DNA of 64,000 nucleotides, taken from the NCBI GenBank assembly GCA_024239035.1, contig JANBVK010000001.1:171010-235009 (forward strand), read 5' to 3'. Positions 9,153 to 38,848 of this stretch are shown one piece after another; the first letter of the stretch is position 1, and every line of letters starts with the position of its first letter. The DNA is from Patescibacteria group bacterium (lineage in GTDB: Bacteria; Patescibacteriota; Minisyncoccia; UBA6257; GWB1-50-10). The position numbers were made by a program, and so were the translations under genes. The notes under the pieces were generated by a model, which was given only the letters and a program-made list of their open reading frames with translations, was not told the origin of the DNA and did not search any database.

Positions 9153-10628
9153 TTAGAAACCTCTCAAAAATTGCACAAGAAGCGCTACCGGTGCACCGGC
9201 TGCACCTTTTGCCAAATAATCACCTTCAATTGCAGTCATCCGCGGCGCAATATCAAGATGAACCCAATTATGACCTTTGATAAACTGCCAGAGAAATGCC
9301 GCACTCGTACTAACGCCTCCGGTGCGATTCTTGCCGGTTGTAGTATTTGCTACATCCCCGAACGTCCCTTTTATGTCCTCCTCATACTCTTCCCAAAGCG
9401 GCATAGGCCAGACAAAATCACCGGTGACCTCTCCGGCTATCCGCAATTTCTCACTCACCCTATCGTCGGTAGCAAAGAGAGCCGACGCGCGCTGGCCAAG
9501 AGCAACTACCGCTGAGCCTGTAAGCGTCGCAACGTCAATAACAAGCCGCGGCTTGTACCGCTTCGCATACTCCAGCGCATCGGCAAGTATCACCCTCCCC
9601 TCGGCATCGGTGTTTAAAACTTCAATTGTCTTGCCGGACATGGTGCGGAGAACGTCACCCGGGCGATAACTTGAGCCCGAAGGCATATTCTCGACCGCCG
9701 GGACAAGACCAATAATGTTTCTCTTTGACTTAAGCTTCGCAAGTGCAGCGAGCGTATGAATCACCGCCGCTCCACCCGACATATCCATATGCATCTCATA
9801 AATTCCCTCAGTCGGCTTCAAGTTCAACCCGCCGGTGTCAAACGTCACTCCCTTACCCACTAAAACCACGGGTTTCTCACTGCGCCTGCCTTTTAGGTAC
9901 TCCATAACGATAAAGCGAGGACGCTCGTCTGACCCGCGCGACACACCGAGCACACCCCCCATTTTCAGTTTGCGGATCGCCCTCTCATCTAAAACTTTTA
10001 CTTTAAACCCTGCACTGCGGCCGGCCCGCCGCGCGGCATCAGCAAGTTTTGATGGAGTCATATCCCCACCGGGAGTATTTGAGAGAATTCTTGTGTGATT
10101 AATCTCTTCTCCTACAACTTTCCCGCGTCTAAGTGCTGCTTTAATCTTCACGCTCCTCCCGGATGAAATAATTTGGACCGCATTTACAAAAAACCAACCC
10201 TCTTTCGGTTTAGTCTTATACTTAACAAACTCAAAATTAGCGATCTCAATCTGTGTCGCAAGCATCTCAGCCACGGACTCACGTAAAATACCCGATTCTT
10301 TAACCAGAAAATCATCTAAATACAGGGCAAGATTACCAATCTTCTCGCGCCGGGCGAGTGTCACCACCTGCCGCATTGTACGCAGCGCCCTTCGGTGATT
10401 AAATCCTTCTGGGACGCTAATCACTAAAACCCGCCTCCCGCGGGACAACAAAAGCACATGACTCTCATTCCCTTCCTGCTTAGCGTTACTTTTAAGAAAG
10501 CGTAGGTTCACTTGGTCCTCTTTTGAGAGCGTTTTAAAAAACGGATGCAATTCAATTTTTTGCTTATCTCTTAAAACAAAAACAGGAGCGGTCTGCCGTG
10601 AAAATTCTTTGGTGTGTATTATTTTCAT
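9153..10628 (-). CDS. pepA: Leucyl aminopeptidase, M17 family
   Basis: 491 aa carrying the M17 signature NTDAEGRVILADALEYA plus VGKGVTFDTGG and the surrounding LAP catalytic-domain conservation. The gene is visibly more GC-rich than the flanking paralogs. Confidence 0.9.
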   Translation of the reverse strand: MKIIHTKEFSRQTAPVFVLRDKQKIELHPFFKTLSKEDQVNLRFLKSNAKQEGNESHVLLLSRGRRVLVISVPEGFNHRRALRTMRQVVTLARREKIGNLALYLDDFLVKESGILRESVAEMLATQIEIANFEFVKYKTKPKEGWFFVNAVQIISSGRSVKIKAALRRGKVVGEEINHTRILSNTPGGDMTPSKLADAARRAGRSAGFKVKVLDERAIRKLKMGGVLGVSRGSDERPRFIVMEYLKGRRSEKPVVLVGKGVTFDTGGLNLKPTEGIYEMHMDMSGGAAVIHTLAALAKLKSKRNIIGLVPAVENMPSGSSYRPGDVLRTMSGKTIEVLNTDAEGRVILADALEYAKRYKPRLVIDVATLTGSAVVALGQRASALFATDDRVSEKLRIAGEVTGDFVWPMPLWEEYEEDIKGTFGDVANTTTGKNRTGGVSTSAAFLWQFIKGHNWVHLDIAPRMTAIEGDYLAKGAAGAPVALLVQFLRGF

Positions 10629-12474: not shown

Positions 12475-14244
12475 TTATACCACCTCCGTGTTATAGCAGG
12501 TCTCACAATACACAATCTCCTTCCTCTCCGGTGCGTATGATGTCTCAAACTCATTGGGACACCTGCCCTCTGGGTGATGAGAATGTTTTGTGGTGTTTTT
12601 ATATCTTGTAGCTTGCCCTGAGCCTGTCGAAGGGTCACAAAGGCACTGGCGGTGCCATAACCTATTCGGTCCGCGTGCATTGAATCGCCGCGCGTGCCGG
12701 CAATCGGGACAAAGACGGGGCAAAGGAATGTGCAGATTTCGGTAGAACGAAAACTCGTTTGATATAATCTTATAGTTTTTCTTGCAGTTAAGACAGACAA
12801 AAATCTCGCGCTTCACGTCCAGGTCGTGAACATCGTAAATAGAGTCAGGAACTTTATCCCACGAAATGGTTTCTTTACCAAAAGTACCTCTAGGATAATC
12901 TTCCCATTTGAATCCTTGCTTCAACGCTTCTTCTTTCAATAAAGGGAATTGTTCCTGAACGCATGCCTCATTGTATCCAAAAGTACTAAGCGGCGGCGGG
13001 AAAAATTCTCCATAAACGCCCTCTTTTTTCATATCTTCTATAATGGTTGTCTTTAGTTTCTCGAAAGTCCCTTTGTCATATTCTTTATTTAAAATGCAGT
13101 ACTGCCTCTTCCGCAAACCCGCTGAACCAAAGCAGTGCTGAGAATCATAACAGTACATGCAATATGTTAAAAAGCTGTTTCCCCAACATAAGCTGCAACA
13201 AATACATTGAGAGCTATTGAGTCCGGTATTTGTGGAATTATAGACCAATTCCGCTCCCCGACCAGCGGTGTCACAATCAACACAATCTTTGGCGTTTCGC
13301 CACACATGCACGCTGTATGCGCAATCTTCGGCGTCGTATGCGTGAAAACAGGAACGACAGTTTTTTACATTCTTGATATAATTTCCCGTTGTATTAGTTG
13401 CATTCACGATTTCAGCAAATTTTTGAGGTTGCGTAGCTGCAAATTTTTGAAATTCCTTGCGAAGTTTCTCCACACCGCTATACGTATCTAACTTTGCTGA
13501 TTCCAAAAATTCCCCGTATTCTTTCTTTGAAAGCGGTTTATTAAAAACATGATATTGCTTATTGCGAAGGTTTACGCACCCTATACAATTTGATGAACCA
13601 CGACAATCAAGGAGAAAATAACTCTCGTTTGAATCATGACAACCCTTGCTGTAGAAAAGTTTGTACGAATTATAACAATCGTCGGACTCATAAGAGAGCT
13701 CAGTTTGGTGAGCAAATGAAACGTCAACGCAACTTTTACAGACTTGTATCCAATAACAGTGGGTGCAGTCTTCGTTGTTGGAAGATTCAACAATCATGTA
13801 GCAATTCTTGTTATCCGCAGAGATATTAATGTATTCCGAATTAACGCTTCGCACATGAATGAGGGCTACTTTAGGAACGACTTTCCACAATTCATGAAAC
13901 TGCTCAAAAAAGGGCTTTCCTGAAATATAATTGCGCCCATAATCTCTTGGGTCCCAATCGTCCGAGAACCAGCAGTCATGACACCACACGGTGTATGGCT
14001 TGTTAGGATTATACATTGAGACAATATCTTTCTTACAACGATCACATGGACGTTTATAAAACACTCTCTCGTTCCGGAACGCTAAGCGCCTCTGCGCACG
14101 GCACAAGGGGCACATCTGCGGTACTAGAGTCCCTATTTTCTTATAAAACGAAAGATCATCCGGTTGGATGATGAATTGACTTCTACAGTTTTGGCAGGCC
14201 TGCGCTGAGCTTTGTCGAAGTATTTTATTTTCCGCCTTTTTCAT
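12475..14244 (-). CDS. Cys-rich multi-zinc-ribbon paralog (copy 8) with the C-terminal 36-nt insertion
   Basis: 589-aa ORF beginning MKKAENKILRQSSAQACQNC. The C-terminus carries CDPSTGSGQATRYKNTTKH...NEFETSYAPERKEIVYCETCY. Confidence 0.8.
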   Translation of the reverse strand: MKKAENKILRQSSAQACQNCRSQFIIQPDDLSFYKKIGTLVPQMCPLCRAQRRLAFRNERVFYKRPCDRCKKDIVSMYNPNKPYTVWCHDCWFSDDWDPRDYGRNYISGKPFFEQFHELWKVVPKVALIHVRSVNSEYINISADNKNCYMIVESSNNEDCTHCYWIQVCKSCVDVSFAHQTELSYESDDCYNSYKLFYSKGCHDSNESYFLLDCRGSSNCIGCVNLRNKQYHVFNKPLSKKEYGEFLESAKLDTYSGVEKLRKEFQKFAATQPQKFAEIVNATNTTGNYIKNVKNCRSCFHAYDAEDCAYSVHVWRNAKDCVDCDTAGRGAELVYNSTNTGLNSSQCICCSLCWGNSFLTYCMYCYDSQHCFGSAGLRKRQYCILNKEYDKGTFEKLKTTIIEDMKKEGVYGEFFPPPLSTFGYNEACVQEQFPLLKEEALKQGFKWEDYPRGTFGKETISWDKVPDSIYDVHDLDVKREIFVCLNCKKNYKIISNEFSFYRNLHIPLPRLCPDCRHARRFNARGPNRLWHRQCLCDPSTGSGQATRYKNTTKHSHHPEGRCPNEFETSYAPERKEIVYCETCYNTEVV

Positions 14245-14248
14245 AAAC

Positions 14249-15901
14249 TTATGATATCTGAGTTTGATAACAGTCTGTACACATAACTTTCCGGTAACCC
14301 CACTTCCGAGGATAGAAGTGATTAACTTTCCTGGAACAAAAGATGCACGATCCCCGGTAAGACTTTAACACAGTGAGCGGCTTGAACCGTTCACGTGTTC
14401 GCCAGTCAGGATGATGACGTGGAAGAGGAATTCCGTGCTCCTTATAAAAAGCGAGTTCGTGGCGAGCTATATTAAAGCGCCAGCCGGTTTCAGGACAGAT
14501 AATTGCCTGCGCAGTTATATCATCTCCTACGTTATCAATTCTATCCGGCAGGTCATCCCCGCTTATTCCCTCATAAGCTGTTTCCCGAACATCATCCCAT
14601 CGCCCTCCAATTTTCTCAATATCCTCTTTAGTTTTAGGGAAATACCATTGGGCAAGAGTTAAATTATATCCTGAATACGCAAACGAATATGGAAGAAACA
14701 ATCCCCATTCACCTCTCTGCTTCATCTGTTCTTTAATTTTTGATGTGAGTTTTGCATACTCATCTTCGGTATACTGCTTGTTTAAAATACAATGCTTTTT
14801 CTTTCTTAATCCCACACAGCCAAAACAGTTCTCACAATCCTCACAATAATCTAAATATGCCGAGTGGCGACAATTCGAGCACCACACGTTTACAATTGCA
14901 TCATAATAGGTAATCCCTATACTCATCGCACTCTTTTCTGCCCTGCCAATACCGACAGAATCAATCACATCCTTGTTTTCTAATCCCCTGAATACATATC
15001 TGCAATTCTCTGATTTTTCTAAAAAGTAACACGAGAAACAATCTTTACACTCATTGATAAAGTTTCCGATGGAATTAGTAACTTTAACGTTAAAATTTTC
15101 TCTATGTACGGCCTCTCTCGCCGTAATATCGCTGAACTCTTTCTTGAGTTCTTGAACCTTCTTATATGAATGAGTGTCAAACTTCTTAAGTTCTTCAAAA
15201 TATTTCTCCTTGGAATACGGTTTGTTGAGAATATGATATTGCTTATTTCTCAAATTCCAGCACATAAAACAGTTCTGGACATTGCGACAGTCATAAAGGA
15301 ACATACTCTCCATACAATTTCTAGCATCAAAGGCGTATTTCACCCTGTAGCACTTAAAACAGTAGAGACAATCATAAGACAACTCTGAGTCGAAACAGTA
15401 GGCAAGATCAATTGAATTTTTGCACCCAAAAGCGCGATAGCTATAGCTCAAATATTCACTGCCTATCATTGCTCGACACAAATAGCAGTCCCTACATTCC
15501 CATATGTCGTCACACCAATCACAATTTACGTTCTTTACCCCCTGCTGATGGGGGTGTGGAACACTGGAACGCAACTCCCCAAATTGTTCAAGGAAAGAAC
15601 GTGAAAAATCATATTCTTTTCCATAATCCGTCGGATCCCAGGCATCAGACACCCATTCATTCCGGGCATAAATAGGAAATCCAGCACTCTCCGGTAGTAC
15701 CGTAATTATTGTCTTCCCGCTCAAATCAGACTTTGTTTTTCGAAACTTTCCGAATGTCCAGAAAGCTAACTGATGTCTCCAGCGACACCTCCGGCACTCC
15801 TTTGAGGGAGGAGTGCCTATTTTCTTATACAGGTTAAAATCCTCCGGTCTGATAGTGAACCGCCGCTCACAACTTTTACAAGTTTTAATCTCAGCTATCA
15901 T
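14249..15901 (-). CDS. Cys-rich multi-zinc-ribbon paralog (copy 9, divergent)
   Basis: 550-aa ORF beginning MIAEIKTCKSCERRFTIRPEDFNLYKKIGTPPSKECRRCR. It has the conserved NCFMCWNLRNKQYHILNKPYSKEKY and CFGCVGLRKKKHCILNKQYTEDEY internal repeats. Its start shares an ATGA overlap with the copy 10 stop. Confidence 0.75.
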   Translation of the reverse strand: MIAEIKTCKSCERRFTIRPEDFNLYKKIGTPPSKECRRCRWRHQLAFWTFGKFRKTKSDLSGKTIITVLPESAGFPIYARNEWVSDAWDPTDYGKEYDFSRSFLEQFGELRSSVPHPHQQGVKNVNCDWCDDIWECRDCYLCRAMIGSEYLSYSYRAFGCKNSIDLAYCFDSELSYDCLYCFKCYRVKYAFDARNCMESMFLYDCRNVQNCFMCWNLRNKQYHILNKPYSKEKYFEELKKFDTHSYKKVQELKKEFSDITAREAVHRENFNVKVTNSIGNFINECKDCFSCYFLEKSENCRYVFRGLENKDVIDSVGIGRAEKSAMSIGITYYDAIVNVWCSNCRHSAYLDYCEDCENCFGCVGLRKKKHCILNKQYTEDEYAKLTSKIKEQMKQRGEWGLFLPYSFAYSGYNLTLAQWYFPKTKEDIEKIGGRWDDVRETAYEGISGDDLPDRIDNVGDDITAQAIICPETGWRFNIARHELAFYKEHGIPLPRHHPDWRTRERFKPLTVLKSYRGSCIFCSRKVNHFYPRKWGYRKVMCTDCYQTQIS

Positions 15902-17694
15902 ATTACTTCACTTTGATAACATTGTTCGCAGTATACAATCTCTCTCCTTTCTGGAGCATAACTTGTCTCAAATTCATTGGGACACCTGCCTTCCAGGTGA
16001 TGATCATGCTTCGTGATATTCTTATATCTTGTAGCTTGCCCTGAGCCTGTCGAAGGGTCGCATACGCACCGGCGATGATACAACTTACTCTTATTTCTCT
16101 GGGCAACCCTCGCATTGTGCCTACAGTCCACACACGTCCGGGGCGCAGAAATCTTTTCTACACGCAGGAAATCAAGTTCCGGTTTAATGAGCCGATACGC
16201 CCTTTTACAATCACTGCACCGAATAATCTCCTTTAAAATACTATCCTGAATATCGTTTATGGAGTCGGGTATATCTTCCGATTTCATCGTAATCTCATAC
16301 TCCCGCGATGACGGTTCCTGCCATTTATATCCTTCTTCCTCTGCCTGTTCTTTCGTCAACGGAAAATGCTCGTTGGCAATGGTTTGATTGTAACCAAAAG
16401 GAGAAAGTTCTATGGGGAAAAACTCACCGTATTTATAGATCCTTCCTTTTTTATCAATATATGGCTTTTCACCCATTTGCTTCTTAATTCTCTCTACCAG
16501 CATTTCATACTCCTCTTTAGAATATTCTTTGTTTAAAATACAATGTTGCTTTTTACGCAAACCAACGCAACCGAATAAATTTGATGCCGAATGACAATAT
16601 ATACAATATTCCATATCCCGAATGTCCGTCCATGACTCGACGCAGAACTTCACGTTAAACGTCCCCATACCGGTAACAGCATTCTCATACCCCAATTGAT
16701 TGTTCTGACCCCAAACCGTCACATCATAGCAGTCTTTATTGGGTGGAAACTGGTAATATTGAACATATTTTAAGTTTTCACCTTCTCTAACTAAGTAACT
16801 TTGGCGGACATTTTTAGAGTTGGTAACGTACTCACCGCTCACGTTAGTGTTTTTAATCCCTTGTAGATACTTATTGGGAAACTTCTTCCAAAACTCACTT
16901 ACACCCCCTTTCACCGCAGTAAGGCCGTTCCACGAATGCAAATTCATCCCCTTAATCTTTCTTTCATATTCCTCCTTGGAATAAGGAGTATTATAAATAT
17001 GATACTTTTTATTGCGGAGGTTAACACACCCAAAACAATCACTGCAACCTTTGCAATTCTTTGAAAACCACACGCCGTGACAGTCCTCGCACTGTGAAGA
17101 AAAGTGCGTTTGATAACAATTCTCCAGCCAGAACGAGTCATAGCAACGCTCACACCTACCGATATGTGAATTGTCAAAACAGTTCTTACAATTATCCACT
17201 CCGTTACCATAGGCACAATCTTCGTCCTTATTTGAGTTAAACATCAAATAGCAGTTTCTCAGATAGCCGGCATTGGCGCAATATTCGCTGTTTACCATAT
17301 TAAGCACTGAAAGATTAAATCTTGGTACCACTTTAGCAAGTTCGAAAAATTGTTCAAAAAAGGTTCGTGAAAAATCGTAATCCCTTCCGTAGGAGGTTGC
17401 ATCCCAATCATCAGCCCACCACTCTTTCTCTTCATATAAAGTAACTTCTGATTCCGGAGGATAGAGAGCTAAAATTTCCTTCCCGGATTTTGCGCTCTTT
17501 GTTCTAAAGAGTTTCCGCTCGTTGCGAGACGCAATCCTTCTCTGAAATCTACACTCCGGACAAAACGTCGGCGGCGGGACGCTGATTTTCTTGTAGAAAT
17601 CAAGGTCCTCCGGTTCGATGGTGAACTCTGTTTTACAGTTCTGGCAGGTCGAAGACACTGAGTCTTGTCGAAGTGTTTTGGTTTCAGTATTCAT
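15898..17694 (-). CDS. Cys-rich multi-zinc-ribbon paralog (copy 10) with the C-terminal 36-nt insertion
   Basis: The likely start is MNTETKTLRQDSVSSTCQNC at 17694, in an ATGA overlap with the copy 11 stop. The C-terminus carries CDPSTGSGQATRYKNITKH. Confidence 0.75.
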   Translation of the reverse strand: MNTETKTLRQDSVSSTCQNCKTEFTIEPEDLDFYKKISVPPPTFCPECRFQRRIASRNERKLFRTKSAKSGKEILALYPPESEVTLYEEKEWWADDWDATSYGRDYDFSRTFFEQFFELAKVVPRFNLSVLNMVNSEYCANAGYLRNCYLMFNSNKDEDCAYGNGVDNCKNCFDNSHIGRCERCYDSFWLENCYQTHFSSQCEDCHGVWFSKNCKGCSDCFGCVNLRNKKYHIYNTPYSKEEYERKIKGMNLHSWNGLTAVKGGVSEFWKKFPNKYLQGIKNTNVSGEYVTNSKNVRQSYLVREGENLKYVQYYQFPPNKDCYDVTVWGQNNQLGYENAVTGMGTFNVKFCVESWTDIRDMEYCIYCHSASNLFGCVGLRKKQHCILNKEYSKEEYEMLVERIKKQMGEKPYIDKKGRIYKYGEFFPIELSPFGYNQTIANEHFPLTKEQAEEEGYKWQEPSSREYEITMKSEDIPDSINDIQDSILKEIIRCSDCKRAYRLIKPELDFLRVEKISAPRTCVDCRHNARVAQRNKSKLYHRRCVCDPSTGSGQATRYKNITKHDHHLEGRCPNEFETSYAPERREIVYCEQCYQSEVI

Positions 17695-19436
17695 ACCACT
17701 TCCGCCTGATAGCACTCCTCACAATAGGGCTTGTAGCCATCAGTAGATTTATAACTGGAGTAAATTTCCTTGTTACAATTGTGACACTTTTCGGGGAAAA
17801 TCCGATAGTTGTTCAAAATGGCAAATCGATCAACTATCCTTTGGTAGGGATATCTGGTTGGGATAGGCAGTTTTTTTCTTCTGTAAAACTTGAGTTCGGA
17901 AGAAATAATCCGAAAGGGATAGCCGGTCTTCTCGCAAATAAGAGCTTTATTTACAATATCATCAGTGACATCTTTAATATCTTTTGGAATATCACGAACA
18001 GAAACCGTCTCCATTCCCTTGACATCAATATTGACTTCTTCTTGCCACAGAGCACCAAACTTCTCAATTTGCTCTTTATTTAACGGAAAGATGATCTGGG
18101 CCATCGAATCATTGTAGGCGAAGGTACTAAATTTCAAGGGGAAAAATTCTCCATACTCTCCCCTTTCTAAAAGCTTTGTTTTAATGTCATCAACTATTGC
18201 CCAATATTCATCCTCCTCATACTGTTTATTAAAAATACAATACTGTTTATTCTCTACACCGACACAAGCGAAACAATTAATGCAATGGAGACAATTTATC
18301 AAGTACTCCGATTCGATAATAAACTTTGAAGCGAAAGAAAACTTGACCCTTGAACCCTCGGAACCTACTCCTACTGTCTCATATAGTAATTCCGAACCAC
18401 CCGAAATGCTGTAGTCCATTGAATCTTTATTCCTAACGGTTATTTCAGCAAATCTGAGGTTCTCTGACTTCTCAGCGTGAAAAACGTTGTCACAATTCTT
18501 GCAGCTGGCAATTTGATTCCCAAACGAATTATGTGACTTATCAATTCTAGTAGCTCTGACGGGAGACTCCTTAACCAGATTCCAAAACTTAGCTTTATAG
18601 CCCTCGAGTAATTCCCTATCACCAAGGTAAATTTTCTTTCTCTCTTTTCTATATTCTTCTTCGGATAATTGTTTATTAAAAATACAATATTTCTTATTCC
18701 GAAGGTTAACACAGCCAAAGCAGTCACTGCAGTTACGGCAATCATAAATGAAGGCGCAATCTAAGCAATCATTTGAAAAGTAAGCATAATCACATCGGTA
18801 GCATTTCTTGGTAAGAACGCTTTCATAACACTGTTCACATTTCCAAATACTATAACAATCAATGCTGTCCCTGGAGTTAAAAACTGACATGCTATAAGAT
18901 ATATTCTCGGAACGCCAGCCTCCTGAGACATAGTAGCCATTTTTCAAATCTCTCCCTCCTAGGGTGTAGTCGCTGTTTATACAATAAGGATCACGAATAA
19001 TAGTGGGTTGAGGAACAACGCTTCTCAATTTTTCATAATAAGTATCAAAAAATGGCTCGCTAACCTCATATTCCTGGCCATATTTCAGGGGATCCCAGCC
19101 GGCTGACCGATAAAATTTAAAATCATATACGGTAAAATCTTTCACGGGCGAAACAAAAGAGACAACTTGCTCATCATGCCGGGGAGCATCACAGGACCGT
19201 TTATATAATTTAATAGTGTGTCCGAAGGTCAAACGTCTCTGCCGACGGCAGTTAGGACAGAGGGTGGGCGGGGGCACGCGGAGTAAATTATAAAACTCAA
19301 TATCCCTTTCTATTATTTCAAACTCTTTCAAACAATAAGGTGATTTCCCCGACCAAGCACATTTCCTGGTATGCGGCTTGATATCCTTCAATATCTCATC
19401 AAGCGCCCTGTCAAATTGTGGCGTTTTAGATATCAT
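17691..19436 (-). CDS. Cys-rich multi-zinc-ribbon paralog (copy 11, most divergent)
   Basis: 581 aa. The N-terminus KCAWSGKSPYCLKEFEIIERDIEFYNLLRVPPPTLCPNCRRQRR and the core motifs CSDCFGCVNLRNKKYCIFNKQLSEEEY and CINCFACVGVENKQYCIFNKQYEEDEY are retained. Confidence 0.75.
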   Translation of the reverse strand: MISKTPQFDRALDEILKDIKPHTRKCAWSGKSPYCLKEFEIIERDIEFYNLLRVPPPTLCPNCRRQRRLTFGHTIKLYKRSCDAPRHDEQVVSFVSPVKDFTVYDFKFYRSAGWDPLKYGQEYEVSEPFFDTYYEKLRSVVPQPTIIRDPYCINSDYTLGGRDLKNGYYVSGGWRSENISYSMSVFNSRDSIDCYSIWKCEQCYESVLTKKCYRCDYAYFSNDCLDCAFIYDCRNCSDCFGCVNLRNKKYCIFNKQLSEEEYRKERKKIYLGDRELLEGYKAKFWNLVKESPVRATRIDKSHNSFGNQIASCKNCDNVFHAEKSENLRFAEITVRNKDSMDYSISGGSELLYETVGVGSEGSRVKFSFASKFIIESEYLINCLHCINCFACVGVENKQYCIFNKQYEEDEYWAIVDDIKTKLLERGEYGEFFPLKFSTFAYNDSMAQIIFPLNKEQIEKFGALWQEEVNIDVKGMETVSVRDIPKDIKDVTDDIVNKALICEKTGYPFRIISSELKFYRRKKLPIPTRYPYQRIVDRFAILNNYRIFPEKCHNCNKEIYSSYKSTDGYKPYCEECYQAEVV

Positions 19437-21208: not shown

Positions 21209-22702
21209 CTAAATAAGCGGCTCCTCTAACTGAGATGCCTGCTCTTCGGCTGGGGCGCCGGCAGGCCCTCGACTGAGCTCGGTCGAAGTCCCGCCAGCAG
21301 ACGGACTACCGGTAATTGCTGCTTTTTCCTGGGCGCTCCGAATAATTGTCGCTTCCTCTTCCTCAATAAGCTTCTTGGCAGCATCGGCGGAGATAGTATA
21401 TTTCCGCCGTGACGCGGCAATGACCTCTTCCTTAAACGACCTGTGGGGCGGGGGTAATACTTTTAGCGTCTCAGCTGAGAAAGGATCATACGATTCACCA
21501 TCAATCATGAGTTTAATATAGAATTCCTGCATACCGAGGTTAATCATGTCTTTTGTCTTAAAAATCGGTGCCATCTCTGGTTCCAATGTCTTCGCATCCT
21601 CGCCGCCAACCCGGAATATAATAATACTCCCCACATTACCTAAAACCGCTGCCCGCACTCTCTCAATAAGCTGGCCGATGTATTGATGAGCAATCGTAAT
21701 ATTAAGTGCATATTTTCTAGCCTCGGACAATAAATTCTCAAACGTCTCGGTAACCAAATTATGGAACTCATCAACGTACAAGTAAAAGTCGTGGCGTTCC
21801 TTTTCAGGTAGCTTTGCCCTAGCCATTCCAGCCTGTTTAATTTTTGTAATAAACATCGAACCAAAAAAACTCGAGTTCTCCTCCCCCAGCTTTCCCTTAG
21901 AGAGGTTTATTAGAATAATTTTTTTCTCTCCCATAAGTTTTTCAAGATCTACTTTATTCTCTTTCTGACCAAAAATATTCCGCAGCATTGGGTCAGAAAG
22001 AAATTGACCAAGTTTATTCACAAGCGGAATGATAGCATCGGTATCAAACTTCTCTGACCAATCAGCAAACTCGATTGCCCAAAAGCGTTTTACCATATCG
22101 TCCTCAATATATTCCACTACTTTTTGCCGATAGTTCCTGTCGGTAAGCATGGATATCATTCCTCGCATCGTCGCATGAGGATAGTCAAGAAGAGCGAGAG
22201 AAGTAAACCGGAAGACGTGCTCAAGTCGAGGTGTCCAGTTTGCGCCAAATTGCTTCTCCATAACCTCAATCAATCCTTGAGTCAACTGGTGCTTAAATAA
22301 AGGATCTATGTTCGACAATGGATTAAATGAAACTGGATAGTCGTTATCTGAGGGGTCAATAATAACTACGTCTTCAATCCTATCCTCCGGAACAAAATCT
22401 AAAGTTTCCTCAATAACGTCTCCGTGAGGATCTATAAGACAAAGACCGTGCCCGTAAGCAATGTCCTGACGAATAAGAAGTTCCAAAAGCTTAGACTTTC
22501 CAACGCCGCTTTTCCCTATGATGTATAGATGGCGCCGTCGATCCACCCGTTTGATGCCGAAAATAAATTTTTTCTCCTCAAGAGCAGCCACATAGTTAGT
22601 GCGGCCGATAAATGAAGTTTCTTTAGGATCAATGCGCCCATACGTCGGTAGTTCCGGCGGCGGCGGCGCATATCTAATTATTTGGATTTTACTTCTAGCC
22701 AT
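21209..22702 (-). CDS. TraD/VirD4/TraG-like (DUF87/FtsK-HerA superfamily) ATPase, stand-alone ATPase domain
   Basis: 497 aa with Walker A IIGKSGVGKSKLLE, LIDPHGDV, Walker B YLYVDEFHNL and ARKYALNITIAHQYIGQL. It is a paralog of the C-terminal half of 54676..57030. Confidence 0.75.
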   Translation of the reverse strand: MARSKIQIIRYAPPPPELPTYGRIDPKETSFIGRTNYVAALEEKKFIFGIKRVDRRRHLYIIGKSGVGKSKLLELLIRQDIAYGHGLCLIDPHGDVIEETLDFVPEDRIEDVVIIDPSDNDYPVSFNPLSNIDPLFKHQLTQGLIEVMEKQFGANWTPRLEHVFRFTSLALLDYPHATMRGMISMLTDRNYRQKVVEYIEDDMVKRFWAIEFADWSEKFDTDAIIPLVNKLGQFLSDPMLRNIFGQKENKVDLEKLMGEKKIILINLSKGKLGEENSSFFGSMFITKIKQAGMARAKLPEKERHDFYLYVDEFHNLVTETFENLLSEARKYALNITIAHQYIGQLIERVRAAVLGNVGSIIIFRVGGEDAKTLEPEMAPIFKTKDMINLGMQEFYIKLMIDGESYDPFSAETLKVLPPPHRSFKEEVIAASRRKYTISADAAKKLIEEEEATIIRSAQEKAAITGSPSAGGTSTELSRGPAGAPAEEQASQLEEPLI

Positions 22703-32431: not shown

Positions 32432-33718
32432 TCAATTTCTTAAAAAATCACCGCTCCTTATCTTTTTATGATAAGTGTGCGCAAAACGATGAGCTTCATC
32501 ACGAATCCTAATTAAAGTATTAGTCCCCACACGCCGCGGAACAACCCCCACAAAAACATTCCTCTTTCTTTTAGGGCCTTTTGCAATACCCACCACCGGG
32601 ATTCTCAACCCAAACTCCGACAAAACATTCCTCACGGCATTAACCTGTGGTTTACCCCCATCAACTAAAATGATATCAGGTAGGGGCCAGGGGTTATTAA
32701 AACGACGACTTAGTACCTCTCTGAGCATCCCAACATCGTCTGGTTGGGTGATAGTTCTAATTTTAAATTTCCGGTACTCGCCTTTAGCCGGTTCACTATC
32801 AATAAAAACAACCATTGCTCCTACCGCCGACTGCCCTGAAATATTGGAGACATCGTACCCCTCGACCCGTACCGCAACTTGCGACCTGCGATCTGCAATC
32901 TGTGATTTACTAACTAACGAGACATCCTGAATGTGCTGTAGGGCAAAAATCTGACGACGCAGTGTCCGAGCTCTTTCAAATTCAAGGATCTCACTAGCCA
33001 GGCTCATTTCCTTCTCTAAATTCCTTAAAATCCTTTTCTTTTTTCCTTCAAAAAGAAGTTTGATATTCCTAATATTTTTCAGGTAATCCGATCGAGTCAC
33101 GCTATCAATGCAGGTCCCAGGACAAAGACCGATTTCAAAGTCGAAGCAAGCCCTTCGATGTGACTCAGGGTAAAGTCTCTTTTTTCTCGGGGGACCTGCC
33201 CTGAGCTGCGTCGAAGGGTGGATACTGTAAGGAAATATCCGGCGGATAATCTTAAGCGCCTCCCGAATGCCGGAGGCAGACGTAAACGGCCCGAACACTT
33301 CGACTCGCTTACGCTCGCCGAGCGCAAGACGTTGACCCCGCACAAGAAGCACGCGGGGAAATTTATCTTTCGTAATCTCAACATAGAGAAAGCTCTTATC
33401 ATCTTTTTCTTTAATGTTGTAAGGCGGCTGTTGTTTCTTAATGAGATCTGCTTCTAAGATTAATGCTTCAAGAGCGGTGTCCGTTTTTTTATAATTTATG
33501 CTTTTAGTTTCGTGAACTAATTTTTCAGTTCTTGAACCGTGGGTCCGCCGGCCAGCGGAGAGAAAATAACTAGAAACTCTACGCTTCAGGTTTGCAGCTT
33601 TCCCAATATAAAGAGTCTGTCCCCGACTGCCTTTCATTAAATAAACTCCCGGTGTCCCCGGCAGATTCTTATAAAGATTTCTAATTTTGACCATACGCTT
33701 ACAACACGACAATATCAT
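32432..33718 (-). CDS. uvrC: Excinuclease ABC subunit C, short form
   Basis: 428 aa with a GIY-YIG N-domain (GVYLMKGSRGQTLYIGKAANLKRRVSSYF), the Cys motif CFDFEIGLCPGTC and the UvrC endonuclease domain. It appears to lack the C-terminal HhH region. Confidence 0.8.
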   Translation of the reverse strand: MILSCCKRMVKIRNLYKNLPGTPGVYLMKGSRGQTLYIGKAANLKRRVSSYFLSAGRRTHGSRTEKLVHETKSINYKKTDTALEALILEADLIKKQQPPYNIKEKDDKSFLYVEITKDKFPRVLLVRGQRLALGERKRVEVFGPFTSASGIREALKIIRRIFPYSIHPSTQLRAGPPRKKRLYPESHRRACFDFEIGLCPGTCIDSVTRSDYLKNIRNIKLLFEGKKKRILRNLEKEMSLASEILEFERARTLRRQIFALQHIQDVSLVSKSQIADRRSQVAVRVEGYDVSNISGQSAVGAMVVFIDSEPAKGEYRKFKIRTITQPDDVGMLREVLSRRFNNPWPLPDIILVDGGKPQVNAVRNVLSEFGLRIPVVGIAKGPKRKRNVFVGVVPRRVGTNTLIRIRDEAHRFAHTYHKKIRSGDFLRN

Positions 33719-34316: not shown

Positions 34317-36827
34317 TTATAATACTTTCCTTAAGTACTCTCCCGTAAAACTTCCGGCCCTTTTTGAAACGCTTTCCGGAGTACCAATGGCCACTACCTC
34401 ACCACCCCCATCTCCTCCTTCGGGCCCTAAATCAATAACCCAATCCGCAGTCTTTATAACATCAAGATTATGCTCAATTACAACCACCGTATTCCCGCGA
34501 CCAACCAATCGCTGAAGCACCTTAAGAAGATTTTCAACGTCAGCAAAGTGAAGTCCGGTCGTCGGCTCATCTAGCAAATAGAGAGTTCTCCTCGTATCAC
34601 GTTTCCCCAGTTCAGCTGAAATCTTAACTCGCTGAGCCTCCCCCCCCGAGAGCGTCGTTGCCGACTGGCCCAATCCTAAATATCCCAAACCAACTTCGTC
34701 TAAAATTTTTAGGCGGTCATGAAGCCACGGAATATCTTTAAAAAATCGCGCCGCCTCCTCAATAGTCATCTGCAGCACCTCATAAATATTTTTACCATTA
34801 TACTTCACCTCTAAAGTTTCCCGATCAAAACGCTTTGCCTTACACACGTCACATTCAATATAGACGGTCGGCAAAAAATGCATCTCAATCGCAATCGTCC
34901 CATGCCCTCTGCAATTTTCACATCTCCCGCCCTTCACGTTGAAACTAAATCTCCCTGGTTTATAACCGCGAACTCTGGCATTTTCTGTAGCGGCAAAGAG
35001 ATCTCGAATATATGTCCATGCCCCAACGTAGGTTGCGGGGTTTGAACGCGGCGTTCTCCCGATCGGCGATTGATTAATGTTCACCACGCGATTTACATAC
35101 TCAAGTCCTAACATCGCCTTATGCAATCCGGCTTTATAATTTGCGCCGTTCCATTTATTAGCAAGTGCTTTATAGAGAACGTCATATACGAACGTGCTCT
35201 TACCGGAGCCGGAAACGCCTGTTACCGCCGTAAGACGTCTTAGAGGAATTTGGATATCAATGTTTTTAAGATTGTTCGCCGTCATTCCTTTAATTTTTAA
35301 AAAGTCGTGATTTTTCGTAACGTTGCGACGCGTCTTCGGGACTCCTATGAATGTCTTTCCTTTTAAATAATCAATGGTTAATGAGGAAATTTTCTTATTC
35401 TCCAGGATATCAGGGATAGGGCCCGCAGCAACTATTTTCCCGCCATGCACGCCGGCTTTAGGGCCAATATCTACCAAATAATCCGCTGATCTAATTGTTT
35501 CTTCGTCGTGCTCGACAACGATGATGGTATTACCCAAATCCCGCAGATCGTGAAGCGTCTTGATAAGCTTTGCATTATCCCGTTGATGGAGACCGATAGT
35601 TGGCTCGTCTAAGATATAAATCGTGCCGGTGAGCCGCGACCCAATCTGCGATGCAAGTCTTATCCGCTGCGCCTCGCCGCCCGAGAGTGTTCTAGTCTTG
35701 CGATCAAGGGTGAGATACTCAAGCCCCACGTCATTCATAAACTTAAGACGATTTTTTATTTCTCGGATCGGAGCTTCAGCGACTACTGAGTTAAGACTTT
35801 GTGATTTCTCTAGATTATTGAAAAATTCAAATACTTCTCCGATTGATAAAGCTGTTACCGCGGCAATATTTTTACCGTCTATCAAGACGCTCAAAGCTTC
35901 TTCCTTAAGTCTTTTCCCAAAACAAGTCTTACAAATTTTTTCTGACCATGCGTGTTCGGTGCCTAATCCATGGCATTCTTCACAGGCCCCATAAGGACTA
36001 TTAAAAGAAAAGAGACGCGGCTCAATCTCGGGAAACGAAAAGCCGTCGTGAGGACAAGTAAACTTAGCTGAAAGCGATGTTTCTTTATCGGCGATAATCG
36101 TCACCACGTCGTTCCCATACTTAAGCGCCGCCTCAACCGCCTCGGCAAGCCTCAGTCGGTTATCCTTATCTTTCATAAGAAGACCGCTCGGCAAACGGTC
36201 GATAACAAGTTCAATGGTGTGTCGCCCATAACGGCTCAAATCTATCTTATCGCGAAGTGAGTAATACGTGCCGTCAATCCGAACCTCAGAAAATCCAGCA
36301 TTTAAAAAATCATATAAAAGTTGATAGTATTCTCCTTTTCTCCCCCGAACCGCCGGCGCTAAAACTACCAGATTTCCATCCGACTTCCGTCTCTTATATA
36401 ATTGCACTACCGCATCAACAATTTCTTCACTCGTCATCTTTCGAATCTCCCTACCGCACTTCGGGCAATGTGGTTTTCCTCCTCTGGCAAAAAGCACCCG
36501 CAGATAGTCGTATATCTCGGTGATGGTTGCAACTGTTGAACGGGGATTCGACGTGTGACTTTTTTGATCGATTGAAATCGCGGGTGATAAACCCTCAATT
36601 TCATCAACGTCCGGTTTATCCAGTCGCCCTAAAAACTGCCTTGCGTAGGCTGAGAGTGACTCAATATATCGCCTCTGTCCCTCGGCAAAAATCGTATCAA
36701 ACGCCAAGCTCGACTTTCCTGACCCTGAAAGCCCGGTAAACACAATCATTTTGTTCCGCGGAAGCTCTAAATTTATATTTTTTAGATTATGCTCCCTCGC
36801 TCCTTTGATACGTATAAATTCACTCAT
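34317..36827 (-). CDS. uvrA: Excinuclease ABC subunit A
   Basis: 836 aa with two ABC modules, each carrying the LSGGEAQRIRLA/LSGGEAQRVKIS signature, and the zinc-finger Cys pairs. Confidence 0.9.
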   Translation of the reverse strand: MSEFIRIKGAREHNLKNINLELPRNKMIVFTGLSGSGKSSLAFDTIFAEGQRRYIESLSAYARQFLGRLDKPDVDEIEGLSPAISIDQKSHTSNPRSTVATITEIYDYLRVLFARGGKPHCPKCGREIRKMTSEEIVDAVVQLYKRRKSDGNLVVLAPAVRGRKGEYYQLLYDFLNAGFSEVRIDGTYYSLRDKIDLSRYGRHTIELVIDRLPSGLLMKDKDNRLRLAEAVEAALKYGNDVVTIIADKETSLSAKFTCPHDGFSFPEIEPRLFSFNSPYGACEECHGLGTEHAWSEKICKTCFGKRLKEEALSVLIDGKNIAAVTALSIGEVFEFFNNLEKSQSLNSVVAEAPIREIKNRLKFMNDVGLEYLTLDRKTRTLSGGEAQRIRLASQIGSRLTGTIYILDEPTIGLHQRDNAKLIKTLHDLRDLGNTIIVVEHDEETIRSADYLVDIGPKAGVHGGKIVAAGPIPDILENKKISSLTIDYLKGKTFIGVPKTRRNVTKNHDFLKIKGMTANNLKNIDIQIPLRRLTAVTGVSGSGKSTFVYDVLYKALANKWNGANYKAGLHKAMLGLEYVNRVVNINQSPIGRTPRSNPATYVGAWTYIRDLFAATENARVRGYKPGRFSFNVKGGRCENCRGHGTIAIEMHFLPTVYIECDVCKAKRFDRETLEVKYNGKNIYEVLQMTIEEAARFFKDIPWLHDRLKILDEVGLGYLGLGQSATTLSGGEAQRVKISAELGKRDTRRTLYLLDEPTTGLHFADVENLLKVLQRLVGRGNTVVVIEHNLDVIKTADWVIDLGPEGGDGGGEVVAIGTPESVSKRAGSFTGEYLRKVL

Positions 36828-38848
36828 GTTTTTGAAATTGCTTTGATATTAATTTTCTTGCTTAACACTCTGACTTCATCCCTCAAAATCGCTGCGAGTT
36901 CAAAATCTAAACGTTCTGCGGCCTCTTTCATCTCTTTCTCCTTTTTATTAAGAAGTTCGCGAATAGCTGTGCGCGACCTCGGCAGCGGTTTCGTCTCTAG
37001 TTCCAAAATATCCTCAACTGGAATGATGTCGCTGATTTTCTTAACAATTGTCTTTGGTGTAATTCCGTGTTTCTTATTATATGTAATCTGCAACTTACGC
37101 CGCCGATCGGTTTCATCTATTGCGCGTTTCACCGAACCGGTAATTTGGTCAGCATACATTATTACCTCACCCCGAACATTTCGTGCCGCCCGACCAATAG
37201 TTTGGACAAGAGATGTCTCACTCCTTAAAAATCCTTCTTTGTCAGCATCTAAAATCGCCACCAGAGATACTTCCGGCAAATCAAGCCCTTCCCGTAAAAG
37301 ATTTACTCCCACAAGCACGTCAAATCCGCCGGACTTAGCGGATCCTTTTCTTAAATTTGTTAAAATCTTTATGCGATCCAGAGTCTTCACATCACTGTGG
37401 AGGTAAGTAACCTTAATCTCCCGCTCCTCAAGATAGTTAGATAAATCCTCTGCCATACGTTTAGTGAGCGTTGTTACAAGCACTCTTTCTTTTATTTTCA
37501 CACGCTCTTCAATGCGCGGAATTAAATCATCAACTTGGCCGCGTGCGGGACAAATTGTTATCTTTGGGTCAACAAGGCCGGTCGGCCGAATAACCTGTTC
37601 TACAACCCCTCGACTTCGCTCAGGGTAAGTTTGCCCACTCTTCCTCAGTTCATACGGGCCGGGTGTTGCTGAGGTATAGATAACCTGCCCAATCCGATTC
37701 TCAAATTCATGAAATTTAAGTGGCCGGTTATCAGCAGCAGACGGCAATCTAAATCCATACTCAATAAGAGTTTTCTTCCGTGATGCGTCACCTTCAGACA
37801 TACCGTTCAACTGCGGAACGGTGACGTGCGACTCGTCAATCACAGTCAAGAAATCACCGTTATAGTAGTCCAGGAGCGTTGCAGGCGGTTCACCAGGGGC
37901 GCGGCCCGAGAGGTGACGTGAATAGTTCTCAATACCGTTGCAATACCCAATCTCTCGAAGCATTGAGAGATCCGCTCTTGTGCGACGCTCAAGCCGTTCA
38001 ACTTCAAGATATTTTTTTTCTTTCTCAAAATATTTCAATTGATTACTTAGTTCCTCTCTAATCACATTAAGAGCTCTTTCACGTTCTGGGCGCGGGGTTA
38101 TGAAATGTTTGGCAGGAGCAACGTAAACTTCTGAAAGTGTAGGAGTATTACCCGGTTGAAATCCCTTCACGGGATCTACTTCATAAATTTTTAGAATAGT
38201 ATCACTTCTTACCTCAAAATTATAAATAACTTCTCTATCCGGCGGCATAATTTCCCAGTTATCGCCTCGCAAGCGAAAAGTCCCTCTCTTCAAGTCAGCG
38301 TTCGTTCTTATAAATTGAAGTTCAATAAGTTTACGAGTAAATGCCTTACGATTAATAATGTCTCCTACTTTTAAGTGAAAAATATTCCGGGCATACACCT
38401 CGGGTGATCCCAAACCATAAATACATGAGACCGAGGCAACAACGATTACATCTTGACGCGTAAGTAAAGCCATTGTTGCCGCATGTCGAAGCTTGTCAAT
38501 TTCATCGTTAATCATCGCCTCCTTGCCTATGTAAGTGTCTGTATTAGGAAGATACGCCTCTGGTTGGTAATAATCATAGTAGGAAACAAAATAGTGCACG
38601 GCATTCTGAGGGAAAAGCTCACGAAATTCGTTGCAAAGTTGTGCCGCAAGAGTCTTGTTATGCGCAATAACAAGCGTAGGTTTATTCACTTTCTCAATTA
38701 CATTGGCAACCGTAAACGTCTTCCCGGAACCAGTAACCCCCAAAAGTGTCTGGTGCTTAAAGTTTTTCCCTAAACCCGAAACAAGCGCCTTTATCGCTTT
38801 AGGTTGATCCCCAGATGGTTTAAATTGAGAAGAAAGATTAAATCTCAT
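36824..38848 (-). CDS. uvrB: Excinuclease ABC subunit B
   Basis: 674 aa with the helicase motifs GVTGSGKT and DESH, and a C-terminal UvrB/UvrC interaction helix. Its stop shares an ATGA overlap with the uvrA start. Confidence 0.9.
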   Translation of the reverse strand: MRFNLSSQFKPSGDQPKAIKALVSGLGKNFKHQTLLGVTGSGKTFTVANVIEKVNKPTLVIAHNKTLAAQLCNEFRELFPQNAVHYFVSYYDYYQPEAYLPNTDTYIGKEAMINDEIDKLRHAATMALLTRQDVIVVASVSCIYGLGSPEVYARNIFHLKVGDIINRKAFTRKLIELQFIRTNADLKRGTFRLRGDNWEIMPPDREVIYNFEVRSDTILKIYEVDPVKGFQPGNTPTLSEVYVAPAKHFITPRPERERALNVIREELSNQLKYFEKEKKYLEVERLERRTRADLSMLREIGYCNGIENYSRHLSGRAPGEPPATLLDYYNGDFLTVIDESHVTVPQLNGMSEGDASRKKTLIEYGFRLPSAADNRPLKFHEFENRIGQVIYTSATPGPYELRKSGQTYPERSRGVVEQVIRPTGLVDPKITICPARGQVDDLIPRIEERVKIKERVLVTTLTKRMAEDLSNYLEEREIKVTYLHSDVKTLDRIKILTNLRKGSAKSGGFDVLVGVNLLREGLDLPEVSLVAILDADKEGFLRSETSLVQTIGRAARNVRGEVIMYADQITGSVKRAIDETDRRRKLQITYNKKHGITPKTIVKKISDIIPVEDILELETKPLPRSRTAIRELLNKKEKEMKEAAERLDFELAAILRDEVRVLSKKINIKAISKT

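Follow-up and report, generated by a model that had tools for sequence, protein, structure and literature searches.

The subject of this analysis is a short palindromic repeat lying in frame within the uvrC gene of a Patescibacteria group bacterium (assembly GCA_024239035.1), on a stretch of 64,000 nucleotides of contig JANBVK010000001.1 referred to here as the window. The host gene occupies an open reading frame (ORF) at 32432-33718 on the minus strand (428 amino acids as an ORF, 420 as deposited), and its product is a short form of UvrC that comprises GIY-YIG, UvrC_M and RNase H-like domains and lacks a helix-hairpin-helix (HhH) domain. This protein and its orthologs of about 400 amino acids from the candidate phyla radiation (CPR) lack the C-terminal (HhH)2 region of the 600-amino-acid UvrC. 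A previous examination of the letters (the sequence-only reading) had reported a motif at 33192-33220, and it is indeed present there, as the 29-mer GGACCTGCCCTGAGCTGCGTCGAAGGGTG on the plus strand, antisense to uvrC and in frame with it, being read HPSTQLRAG(P). The core of this unit, M, spans 33199-33218 on the plus strand (CCCTGAGC-TGC-GTCGAAGGG), following the pattern CCCTGAGC-N2-3-GTCGAAGGG. What had been taken for a lone element proved, however, to be only one of two arms: a second, inverted unit, M' (CCCTGAGTCACATCGAAGGG, with 2 mismatches), was observed at 33151-33170 on the minus strand, the sense strand of uvrC, where it is read YPESHRRA.

Because the second inverted unit sits 28 nt from the first, the uvrC element constitutes a hairpin of ~70 nt. 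The whole M'-loop-M arrangement, for which no strand is assigned, extends from 33150 to 33219 and includes a 28-nt A/G-rich loop read GPPRKKRL, and in the protein it appears as H-PSTQLRAG-PPRKKRL-YPESHRRA-C. Its fold yielded -43.8 kcal/mol on the plus strand (z of -4.9); for the mRNA strand the value was -32.3 kcal/mol (z of -4.1). Pairing between the spacers of the two arms favoured the plus strand in the window gene and the mRNA strand in several orthologs.

The insert corresponds to UvrC residues 168-190, flanked by the invariant His167 and Cys191, and is located within the Cys-rich motif rather than before it, as the sequence-only reading had supposed. [quoted passage not shown] Lying between His167 and Cys191, the insert therefore extends this first spacer, whose length varies naturally, from X11 to X23. 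The invariant His167 is found at the place expected for the first Cys of the Fe-S motif, and in our own reading of the alignment it appears to match the first cysteine of E. coli UvrC. In an AlphaFold2 model built on the alignment (mean predicted local distance difference test score, pLDDT, of 85), residues 162-191 were coil and residues 170-176 scored below 50; in the model the insert site is a low-confidence loop, which may tolerate extra residues.

Segment length between the conserved R..IFP and GLCPGTC was measured in 120 CPR UvrC orthologs. It was 43 amino acids in 42/120 and between 41 and 45 in 67/120, compared with 55 in the window protein. The extra length of about 10 amino acids claimed before was supported as an insertion and revised as a figure, the net difference from the modal length being 12. 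The base-state loop reads FP..HPxxKIGKFKRPCFDY (His-X11-Cys), while about 15 CPR orthologs carry the two-arm insert, HPSTxL(G/R)A(S/G)P followed by a K/R-rich stretch and (L)YPERSRRACFDY. The UvrC of P0046 contains three tandem left arms and that of P0086 (locus L129) the right arm only, as an addition of 24 nt to an otherwise base-state loop; the uvrC genes of L130 and L131 are empty sites. In a neighbour-joining tree calculated with the variable segment masked, carriers were scattered and adjoined sisters without the insert, as in the pairs formed by the window protein with P0005, P0008 with P0024, P0004 with P0120, and P0046 with P0085. The alignment of orthologs, proposed by the sequence-only reading as a check, accordingly favoured insertion, and the pattern it had named as contrary, relatives lacking the motif and still carrying the same extra residues, was not seen among the 120 CPR orthologs.

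Turnover at this site was observed between near-identical genes. The UvrC proteins of P0010 and P0023 are ~98% identical outside two variable segments, and they carry different insert families at the His...Cys site. Units also nest: the uvrC unit of P0010 is split in its spacer by another unit, GCCCGTGGTGAGTGGTATCGAACCA lying between CCCTGAGCG and AGTCGAAGGG, with an addition of 24 nt, and the nested unit has a different, self-complementary stem (TGGT/ACCA). The same P0010 gene (locus L332) contains, after the codons for FPRVLLVR, an unrelated in-frame hairpin of ~75 nt that is near perfect (-67.7 kcal/mol), is read GIGNGLAPSLKERHSSTASARARRRSALFSAG, and is not present in the ~98%-identical P0023. 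A second, unrelated family of palindromic inserts occupies the His...Cys loop in the UvrC proteins of P0011, P0023, P0029, P0089, P0096 and P0104; it reads DPKNPN..IRIIR..HSDAFVDW, and its back-translation pairs CCGAAAAATCCGAAT with ATTCGGATTATTCGG.

At the DNA level, nine insert-bearing uvrC orthologs and two empty sites were compared. The right arm was near-invariant, third positions included (TAC CCT GAG CGN AGT CGA AGG GCT), and the left arm followed CAC CCT TCG ACN NNN CTC (G/A)GG GCA. In columns with a conserved amino acid, pairwise codon identity reached 0.75 in the arms (13 columns) versus 0.40 elsewhere (211 columns), and none of 10,000 permutations gave a value as high as that of the arms (10 orthologs, 59 to 77% amino acid identity). 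The conservation of the arms is thus at the nucleotide level.

Copies of the unit were also found elsewhere in the window. The two words that the sequence-only reading had described as shared with an insert in a paralogous protein are exact in uvrC and in three paralogs, TGCCCTGAGC occurring at 5796, 12614, 16037 and 33197 and GTCGAAGGGT at 5808, 12626, 16049 and 33210, so that both recur at 5796-5817, 12614-12635 and 16037-16058. With up to 1 mismatch, TGCCCTGAGC matched at 7 sites versus 2.0 expected (1 of 100 shuffles reached 7), and GTCGAAGGGT at 12 sites versus 3.2 expected (no shuffle reached 12). A search of the window for the bipartite unit CCCTGAGC-N2-4-GTCGAAGGG rendered 9 copies with up to 1 mismatch per half, and 12 copies with up to 3 mismatches in total, where 30 first-order Markov simulations averaged 0.2. 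Chance is excluded by this difference, and the earlier expectation of a match better than chance held; the density of the unit here is ~1 per 5 to 10 kb. All 12 window copies lie within ORFs. Depending on frame and orientation they are read PSTGSGQ, PSTQLRAG, YPESHRRA, YPERSRG or LRQGSAQA, several frames and both orientations being represented, and a stop codon is found in just one of the unit's six frames.

These observations bear on one alternative, namely an ordinary lineage-specific protein loop, ancestral or adaptive at the level of the protein, whose DNA likeness to the paralogs would be coincidental. The Cys-rich motif's first spacer is naturally variable (X6-14; PMC10085695), and many CPR UvrC orthologs show unrelated extra residues in this same loop, in accordance with such a reading. 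However, the motif counts exclude chance, codon conservation in the arms exceeds the background of the gene, other genes read the same nucleotides in different frames, and model confidence in the region is low, and we consider an ordinary loop very improbable.

The paralogs mentioned above belong to a tandem array at 1-21124 of 12 Cys-rich proteins, 11 complete and one cut by the window start (550 to 605 amino acids, many CxxC, and a weak zf_Tbcl match), which is broken up by a leucyl aminopeptidase gene at 9153-10628 and adjoined by an ORF at 21209-22702 (497 amino acids) with TraG/TrwB/VirD4-like coupling-protein domains (DUF87, T4SS-DNA_transf and TrwB_AAD_bind). Three of them carry on the plus strand a unit read PSTGSGQ: that at 5798-5816 lies in the C-terminal module of the paralog at 5660-7474 and constitutes a 21-nt insert relative to the paralogs at 363-2135 and 2188-3975, and those at 12616-12634 and 16039-16057 lie in the paralogs at 12475-14244 and 15898-17715. 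The 21-nt insert is identical in the three carriers, as are the surrounding 30 nt, and the flanking codons differ. Most of the Cys-rich paralogs have, in addition, a degenerate unit at the N-terminus, and those without it start M..K(K)CQNC. Such units were located on the plus strand at 2097-2116 (paralog 363-2135, read KTLRQGSAQAC), at 14203-14222 (paralog 12475-14244, read ILRQSSAQAC) and at 17656-17675 (paralog 15898-17715, with a compensated stem, CACT/AGTG). Similarly, three tandem degenerate units at 234-307 on the plus strand (CGCTGAGCCTTGTCGAAGTG, with a period of 27 nt) encode TLRQGSASS three times and lie at the N-terminus of the paralog cut by the window start.

The uvrC copy might then have come from this array, or have been homogenised with it, by intragenomic recombination or gene conversion. 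The three paralog copies with their identical 30-nt stretch and differing flanking codons fit such a process, as does the extended sequence that the uvrC arm and the paralog copies have in common (TGCCCTGAGC...GTCGAAGGGT), and conversion between dispersed copies would also account for the conservation of the arms. Against an origin in the array, the spacers differ (CT in the paralogs, TGC in uvrC), genomes named for many phyla contain the family, and the uvrC element, with its derived changes, occurs in orthologs from other genomes (P0002, with the PESHR arm) and, in total, in ~15 lineages. Since those orthologs have it, the uvrC element predates the array of the window genome, and we regard this explanation as improbable.

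Beyond the window, the unit was detected by exact-pattern scan at at least 120 genome loci (one genome per species) and at least 120 viral-contig loci. By their record titles, the genome matches listed include Bacteroidota, Cyanobacteria, Chloroflexota, Acidobacteriota, Actinomycetota, Pseudomonadota, Planctomycetota, Spirochaetota, Nitrospirota and CPR. The sequence-only reading had likened the motif to small dispersed repeats; the family that it represents extends to genomes named for many bacterial phyla and is not peculiar to the window genome. Spacers were non-random among 133 listed instances (TT in 47, CT in 34, GGA in 10 and GAA in 6), the 5' flanks in the matches listed fell into the classes TTCG, CCTG, GTCA, CGGT and CTCA, and about one-quarter of 130 listed genome instances had an inverted partner within 60 nt. 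Plasmid matches of the composite form, described below, were found by BLAST only in unannotated DNA, in Moraxella, Sphingobium, Comamonas and Methylobacter, and a BLAST comparison of the same element with GenBank phages gave no match. Published full texts rendered nothing relevant on the motif peptides, on its 16-mers and 12-mers, or on palindromic or in-frame repeats in CPR, only primers and lactoferrin peptides.

To avoid a stem fixed by the search pattern, the architecture of the unit was studied in all the TGAGC-N2-3-GTCGAA cores of 2.6 Mb of fetched loci with flanks other than CCC/GGG. At least three further contiguous complementary pairs were present in 108 of the 142 cores, versus 19.7 in shuffles, and the set comprised 28 distinct stems, including GGC/GCC, TGG/CCA, TGC/GCA, TCC/GGA and CAC/GTG. 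Because of this excess of pairing cores, the unit is a hairpin, with a variable, covarying stem of 4 to 6 bp and a conserved loop of 11 to 12 nt, (T)GAGC-N2-3-GTCGA(A). Units were seen singly, in tandem, as inverted doublets and nested. A common composite form joins two units with different stems, CCCT/AGGG and TGGT/ACCA, and two local hairpins are favoured over one long hairpin since these stems differ and each pairs with itself.

Other structural candidates were discarded. A perfect GTTCG...CGAAC stem flanking the unit was not borne out; CCGTTCG forms a conserved 5' flank for which most copies offer no matching 3' partner. By inspection, the CUGAUGA...GAAA core of a hammerhead and the 3-nt bulge of a K-turn (kink-turn) were both absent.

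The repeat is not confined to UvrC. In the window, a unit at 37606-37625 on the minus strand, CCCTGAGC-GAA-GTCGAGGGG, lies in frame in the uvrB ORF at 36824-38848 and is read TYPERSRG, and the UvrB loop in which it falls is 8 amino acids longer than in every solved UvrB structure. At least seven sites with motif-derived peptides were found in CPR UvrB, six of them in an alignment of 120 orthologs (numbered here by the residues of the window protein). After residue 215 some orthologs show PSTxLGAG and another PFDSAQGE, two frames of one DNA. FDKAQGR follows residue 232, S/GSGQA residue 331 and PSTG residue 451, and a two-arm insert, GGERSRTTEKRTLRQAQGEG, follows residues 475-477. At the site of the window's own unit, after residue 406, ~15 orthologs have [AST]CPE[PR]SRG and others DPSTGSGSRG or DPSTHSGQG, the reading of the reverse complement. 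The seventh site was seen in the DNA of locus L133, as a doublet read PPSTSSGSNYSPSEVEG. By these readings, both orientations and several frames occur at single sites. Among 77 mostly non-CPR UvrB proteins, 74 have a short loop of 14 to 15 residues at the site of the window unit; this metagenome set serves as a control only, since it was the universal stretch YYDYYQPE that drove the scan. Other in-frame hairpin families, distinct from the motif, were noted in CPR UvrB after residue 331 (window ~37850), with the readings KVRPL..SQGRTL and RINADxIGVNQR..KSAS.

Further CPR loci carry the unit within the catalytic domain (Peptidase_M17) of PepA (L049), between domains of PurL (L039), in a ComM-like protein, where it separates the ChlI and AAA domains (L048), and in glutamate dehydrogenase (GDH), whose N-domain it splits (L129). 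In a Parcubacteria locus (L061:1836-1854) the motif encodes the leader MALSQSKG, immediately followed by the N-methylation motif (FTIVELL) of a type IV pilin, a case that may represent co-option of the repeat as a prepilin leader peptide. For its part, a Staskawiczbacteria unit (L021:414-432) abuts, in a by-eye reading, the 3' end of an apparent tRNA gene (cggtcccatcgggatttgaacccga).

Conservation of this kind could also be expected of a functional nucleic-acid signal under selection, such as the binding or processing site of a widely conserved protein, with a regulatory role in uvrB and uvrC. The signal would act as single-stranded DNA (priming, recombination, or a repair-related hairpin) or as RNA (stability, RNase processing, or translational pausing between domains). 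In agreement with such a role, a conserved loop and a covarying stem are seen in genomes named for many phyla, synonymous sites of the arms are conserved among orthologs of 59 to 77% identity, the folds are stable (z of -4 to -5), and the same UvrC and UvrB sites are filled in many lineages in whose contigs other copies are rare. A related composite element is, moreover, weakly similar to Rfam RF02901 (AaHKsRNA41, Aggregatibacter small RNA 41), whose consensus contains CUGAgCUUGcCGAAG paired with its own reverse complement, the loop core of the present unit arranged as an inverted doublet. Composites of other loci matched it consistently, at 22 to 31 bits, far below the gathering score of 97, and the doublets concerned include L283:1175-1278, L308:61-183 and L273:231-399; the window uvrC element gave no match to this family. 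Aggregatibacter small RNA 41 may be a transcribed copy of the repeat family.

A selected signal is nevertheless difficult to reconcile with the sister lineages that manage without the element, with the unrelated hairpin families that fill the same site, and with hosts that are mutually unrelated (PepA, PurL, GDH, the pilin leader and the Cys-rich paralogs). The presence of both orientations at single sites also argues against it, since the mRNA would carry different loops. No Rfam family was found at gathering thresholds in the whole window; at an E value of up to 10 the uvrC hairpin gave only hairpin-shaped chance matches to miRNA precursors and TCV_Pr, and 19 genome loci showed only signal recognition particle RNA, 5S rRNA and one tRNA, all away from the motif. 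On balance we judge selection for a signal to be unlikely.

The explanation that we consider probable is that the uvrC insert consists of two copies, in inverted order, of a dispersed hairpin repeat of very small size, of the kind of the repetitive extragenic palindromic (REP) sequences and the Rickettsia palindromic elements (RPE), inserted in frame. In the compact, gene-dense genomes of Patescibacteria, copies of the unit would have entered coding DNA and would persist only where the length gained is divisible by three (21 or 24 nt per unit), in the five of six frames without a stop, and at loops that tolerate extra residues. The product would be a short, poorly ordered peptide, presumably without a function of its own, whose sequence is set by frame and orientation alone. 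The units would spread at the DNA level, the most plausible route being a single-stranded hairpin whose conserved loop is recognised by a trans-acting enzyme, in the way REP sequences and their doublets (REP doublets forming hairpins, REPIN) are recognised by REP-associated tyrosine transposases (RAYT); by analogy, a conserved loop on a variable stem is what enzymes of single-stranded hairpins read, the HUH and RAYT families among them. Gene conversion or template switching between copies may offer another route to spread and homogeneity.

Several observations weigh against this explanation. The arms persist across ~35% protein divergence, and the window UvrC and P0002 have the derived PESHR arm in common; this could reflect a selected function instead of the persistence of a selfish element. 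Copies are sparse in the CPR relatives: in ~100 kb around their uvrC genes, the one strong copy outside uvrC lay in GDH, and of a selfish element more copies would be expected. No clean target-site duplication was seen, the AGG repeat at the L129 insert being only suggestive, and no mobilising enzyme or RAYT was detected by tblastn in the 2.6 Mb of fetched loci, a weak test made with an IS200 TnpA query. The number of gains is uncertain because the neighbour-joining tree is crude, and the scatter of carriers may in part reflect unresolved phylogeny, loss, or recombination of uvrC alleles. At the UvrB sites, the orientation of the unit was taken from peptides and not from DNA. Finally, the mostly intergenic position suggested for copies outside CPR is read from ORF length in low-GC genomes, where the longest ORF to span a copy was short (median near 60 codons).

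More tentatively, the explanation might be extended to the family as a whole, a step that we hold to be possible rather than probable. The ~20-nt hairpin, with its variable stem and conserved GAGC-N2-3-GTCGA loop, would then be among the smallest mobile DNA units, devoid of coding capacity and common to bacterial phyla and viruses. Its movement would be due to a trans-acting enzyme reading the single-stranded hairpin's loop; the unit would be able to enter the loop of another copy, and would repeatedly make and replace lineage-specific loops of essential Patescibacteria enzymes (UvrB, UvrC, PepA, PurL and GDH), fast enough to tell apart genes that are ~98% identical.

If an in-frame hairpin repeat is the right explanation, annotated junk peptides such as LRQAQG, PFDKLRA, LSLSKG and PSTSSG would be one structured element across bacterial phyla, and many "CPR-specific insertions" in conserved proteins would be accounted for. 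Patescibacteria would be the second, independent case, after Rickettsia, of hairpin repeats written into essential proteins. Caution would be needed before such inserts are taken as adaptive or as phylogenetic markers, and there would be consequences for alignment trimming and gene calling in CPR genomes. A loop of 11 to 12 nt on a stem of 4 to 6 bp would also be a precise target for finding the protein that recognises it.

Among the known systems, the RPE were reportedly described by Ogata et al. in 2000, as elements inserted in frame in protein-coding genes of Rickettsia. The likeness to them drawn by the sequence-only reading is sound as to kind, a dispersed hairpin repeat tolerated in frame, with the amendment that the element is an inverted pair forming a ~70-nt hairpin. 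In both cases the repeat is found in many unrelated housekeeping genes of a small, gene-dense genome, where the RPE are, and the present inserts would be, translated as an extra surface segment. Dispersal is documented here by the window count and by the genome and viral loci, the hairpin by the folds (z of -4.1 and -4.9) and by stem covariation, and in-frame presence in conserved genes together with absence from orthologs by UvrC, UvrB, PepA, PurL, the ComM-like protein and GDH. The RPE families proper, however, measure ~100 to 150 bp and are restricted to Rickettsia, whereas the present unit measures ~20 nt (21 to 24 nt per insertion, ~70 nt for the doublet), has a conserved loop and a covarying stem, and occurs in genomes named for many phyla, apparently mostly in intergenic DNA outside CPR. 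RPE are also mentioned in PMC1779305.

In architecture the unit resembles the REP sequences, which range from 20 to 40 nt and share with the present unit a short imperfect palindrome, occurrence as singletons, tandems and inverted doublets forming a longer hairpin, and a variable stem with conserved recognition bases. The doublet in uvrC and the inverted partners of about one-quarter of the 130 listed instances correspond to this arrangement. REP sequences and REPIN doublets are said to be mobilised by RAYT transposases (Nunvar et al. in 2010; Bertels and Rainey in 2011). In contrast to REP, the usual 5' GTAG/GTGG head is missing here (the flanks being TTCG, CCTG, GTCA, CGGT and CTCA), and the core is common to genomes named for many phyla, while REP are typically species-specific. 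Copies look extragenic in most phyla, as REP are, but the 12 copies in the window all lie inside ORFs, and we know of no REP in frame in essential genes.

The small dispersed repeats (SDR) of heterocystous cyanobacteria, reportedly presented by Elhai et al. in 2008 under the title [quoted passage not shown], resemble the unit in their size of ~21 to 27 nt, in behaving as insertions, and in nesting in copies of other repeats. They differ in lineage and, by description, in sequence, and to our knowledge they have not been described as in-frame inserts in conserved enzymes. Organelles also contain short hairpins, rich in GC, that invade compact genomes of higher AT content and enter coding regions as well, such as the GC clusters of yeast mitochondria, the byps, and the repetitive hairpin-forming elements of sponges (PMC2800124). 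These belong to eukaryotic organelles, and byps are skipped by the ribosome; unlike them, the CPR inserts preserve the frame and contain no stops, an indication that they are translated.

Two further classes were set aside. A miniature inverted-repeat transposable element would have the terminal inverted repeats of a parent insertion sequence, a target-site duplication and a length of ~100 to 400 bp, and the insertions observed here measure 21 to 24 nt and have no clear duplication. A DNA uptake sequence is a lineage-specific word at ~1 per kb, compared with ~1 per 5 to 10 kb for a unit whose core is found in genomes named for many phyla. Each of the closest known systems thus fails at least one defining feature, and the nearest kind is the in-frame palindromic repeat.

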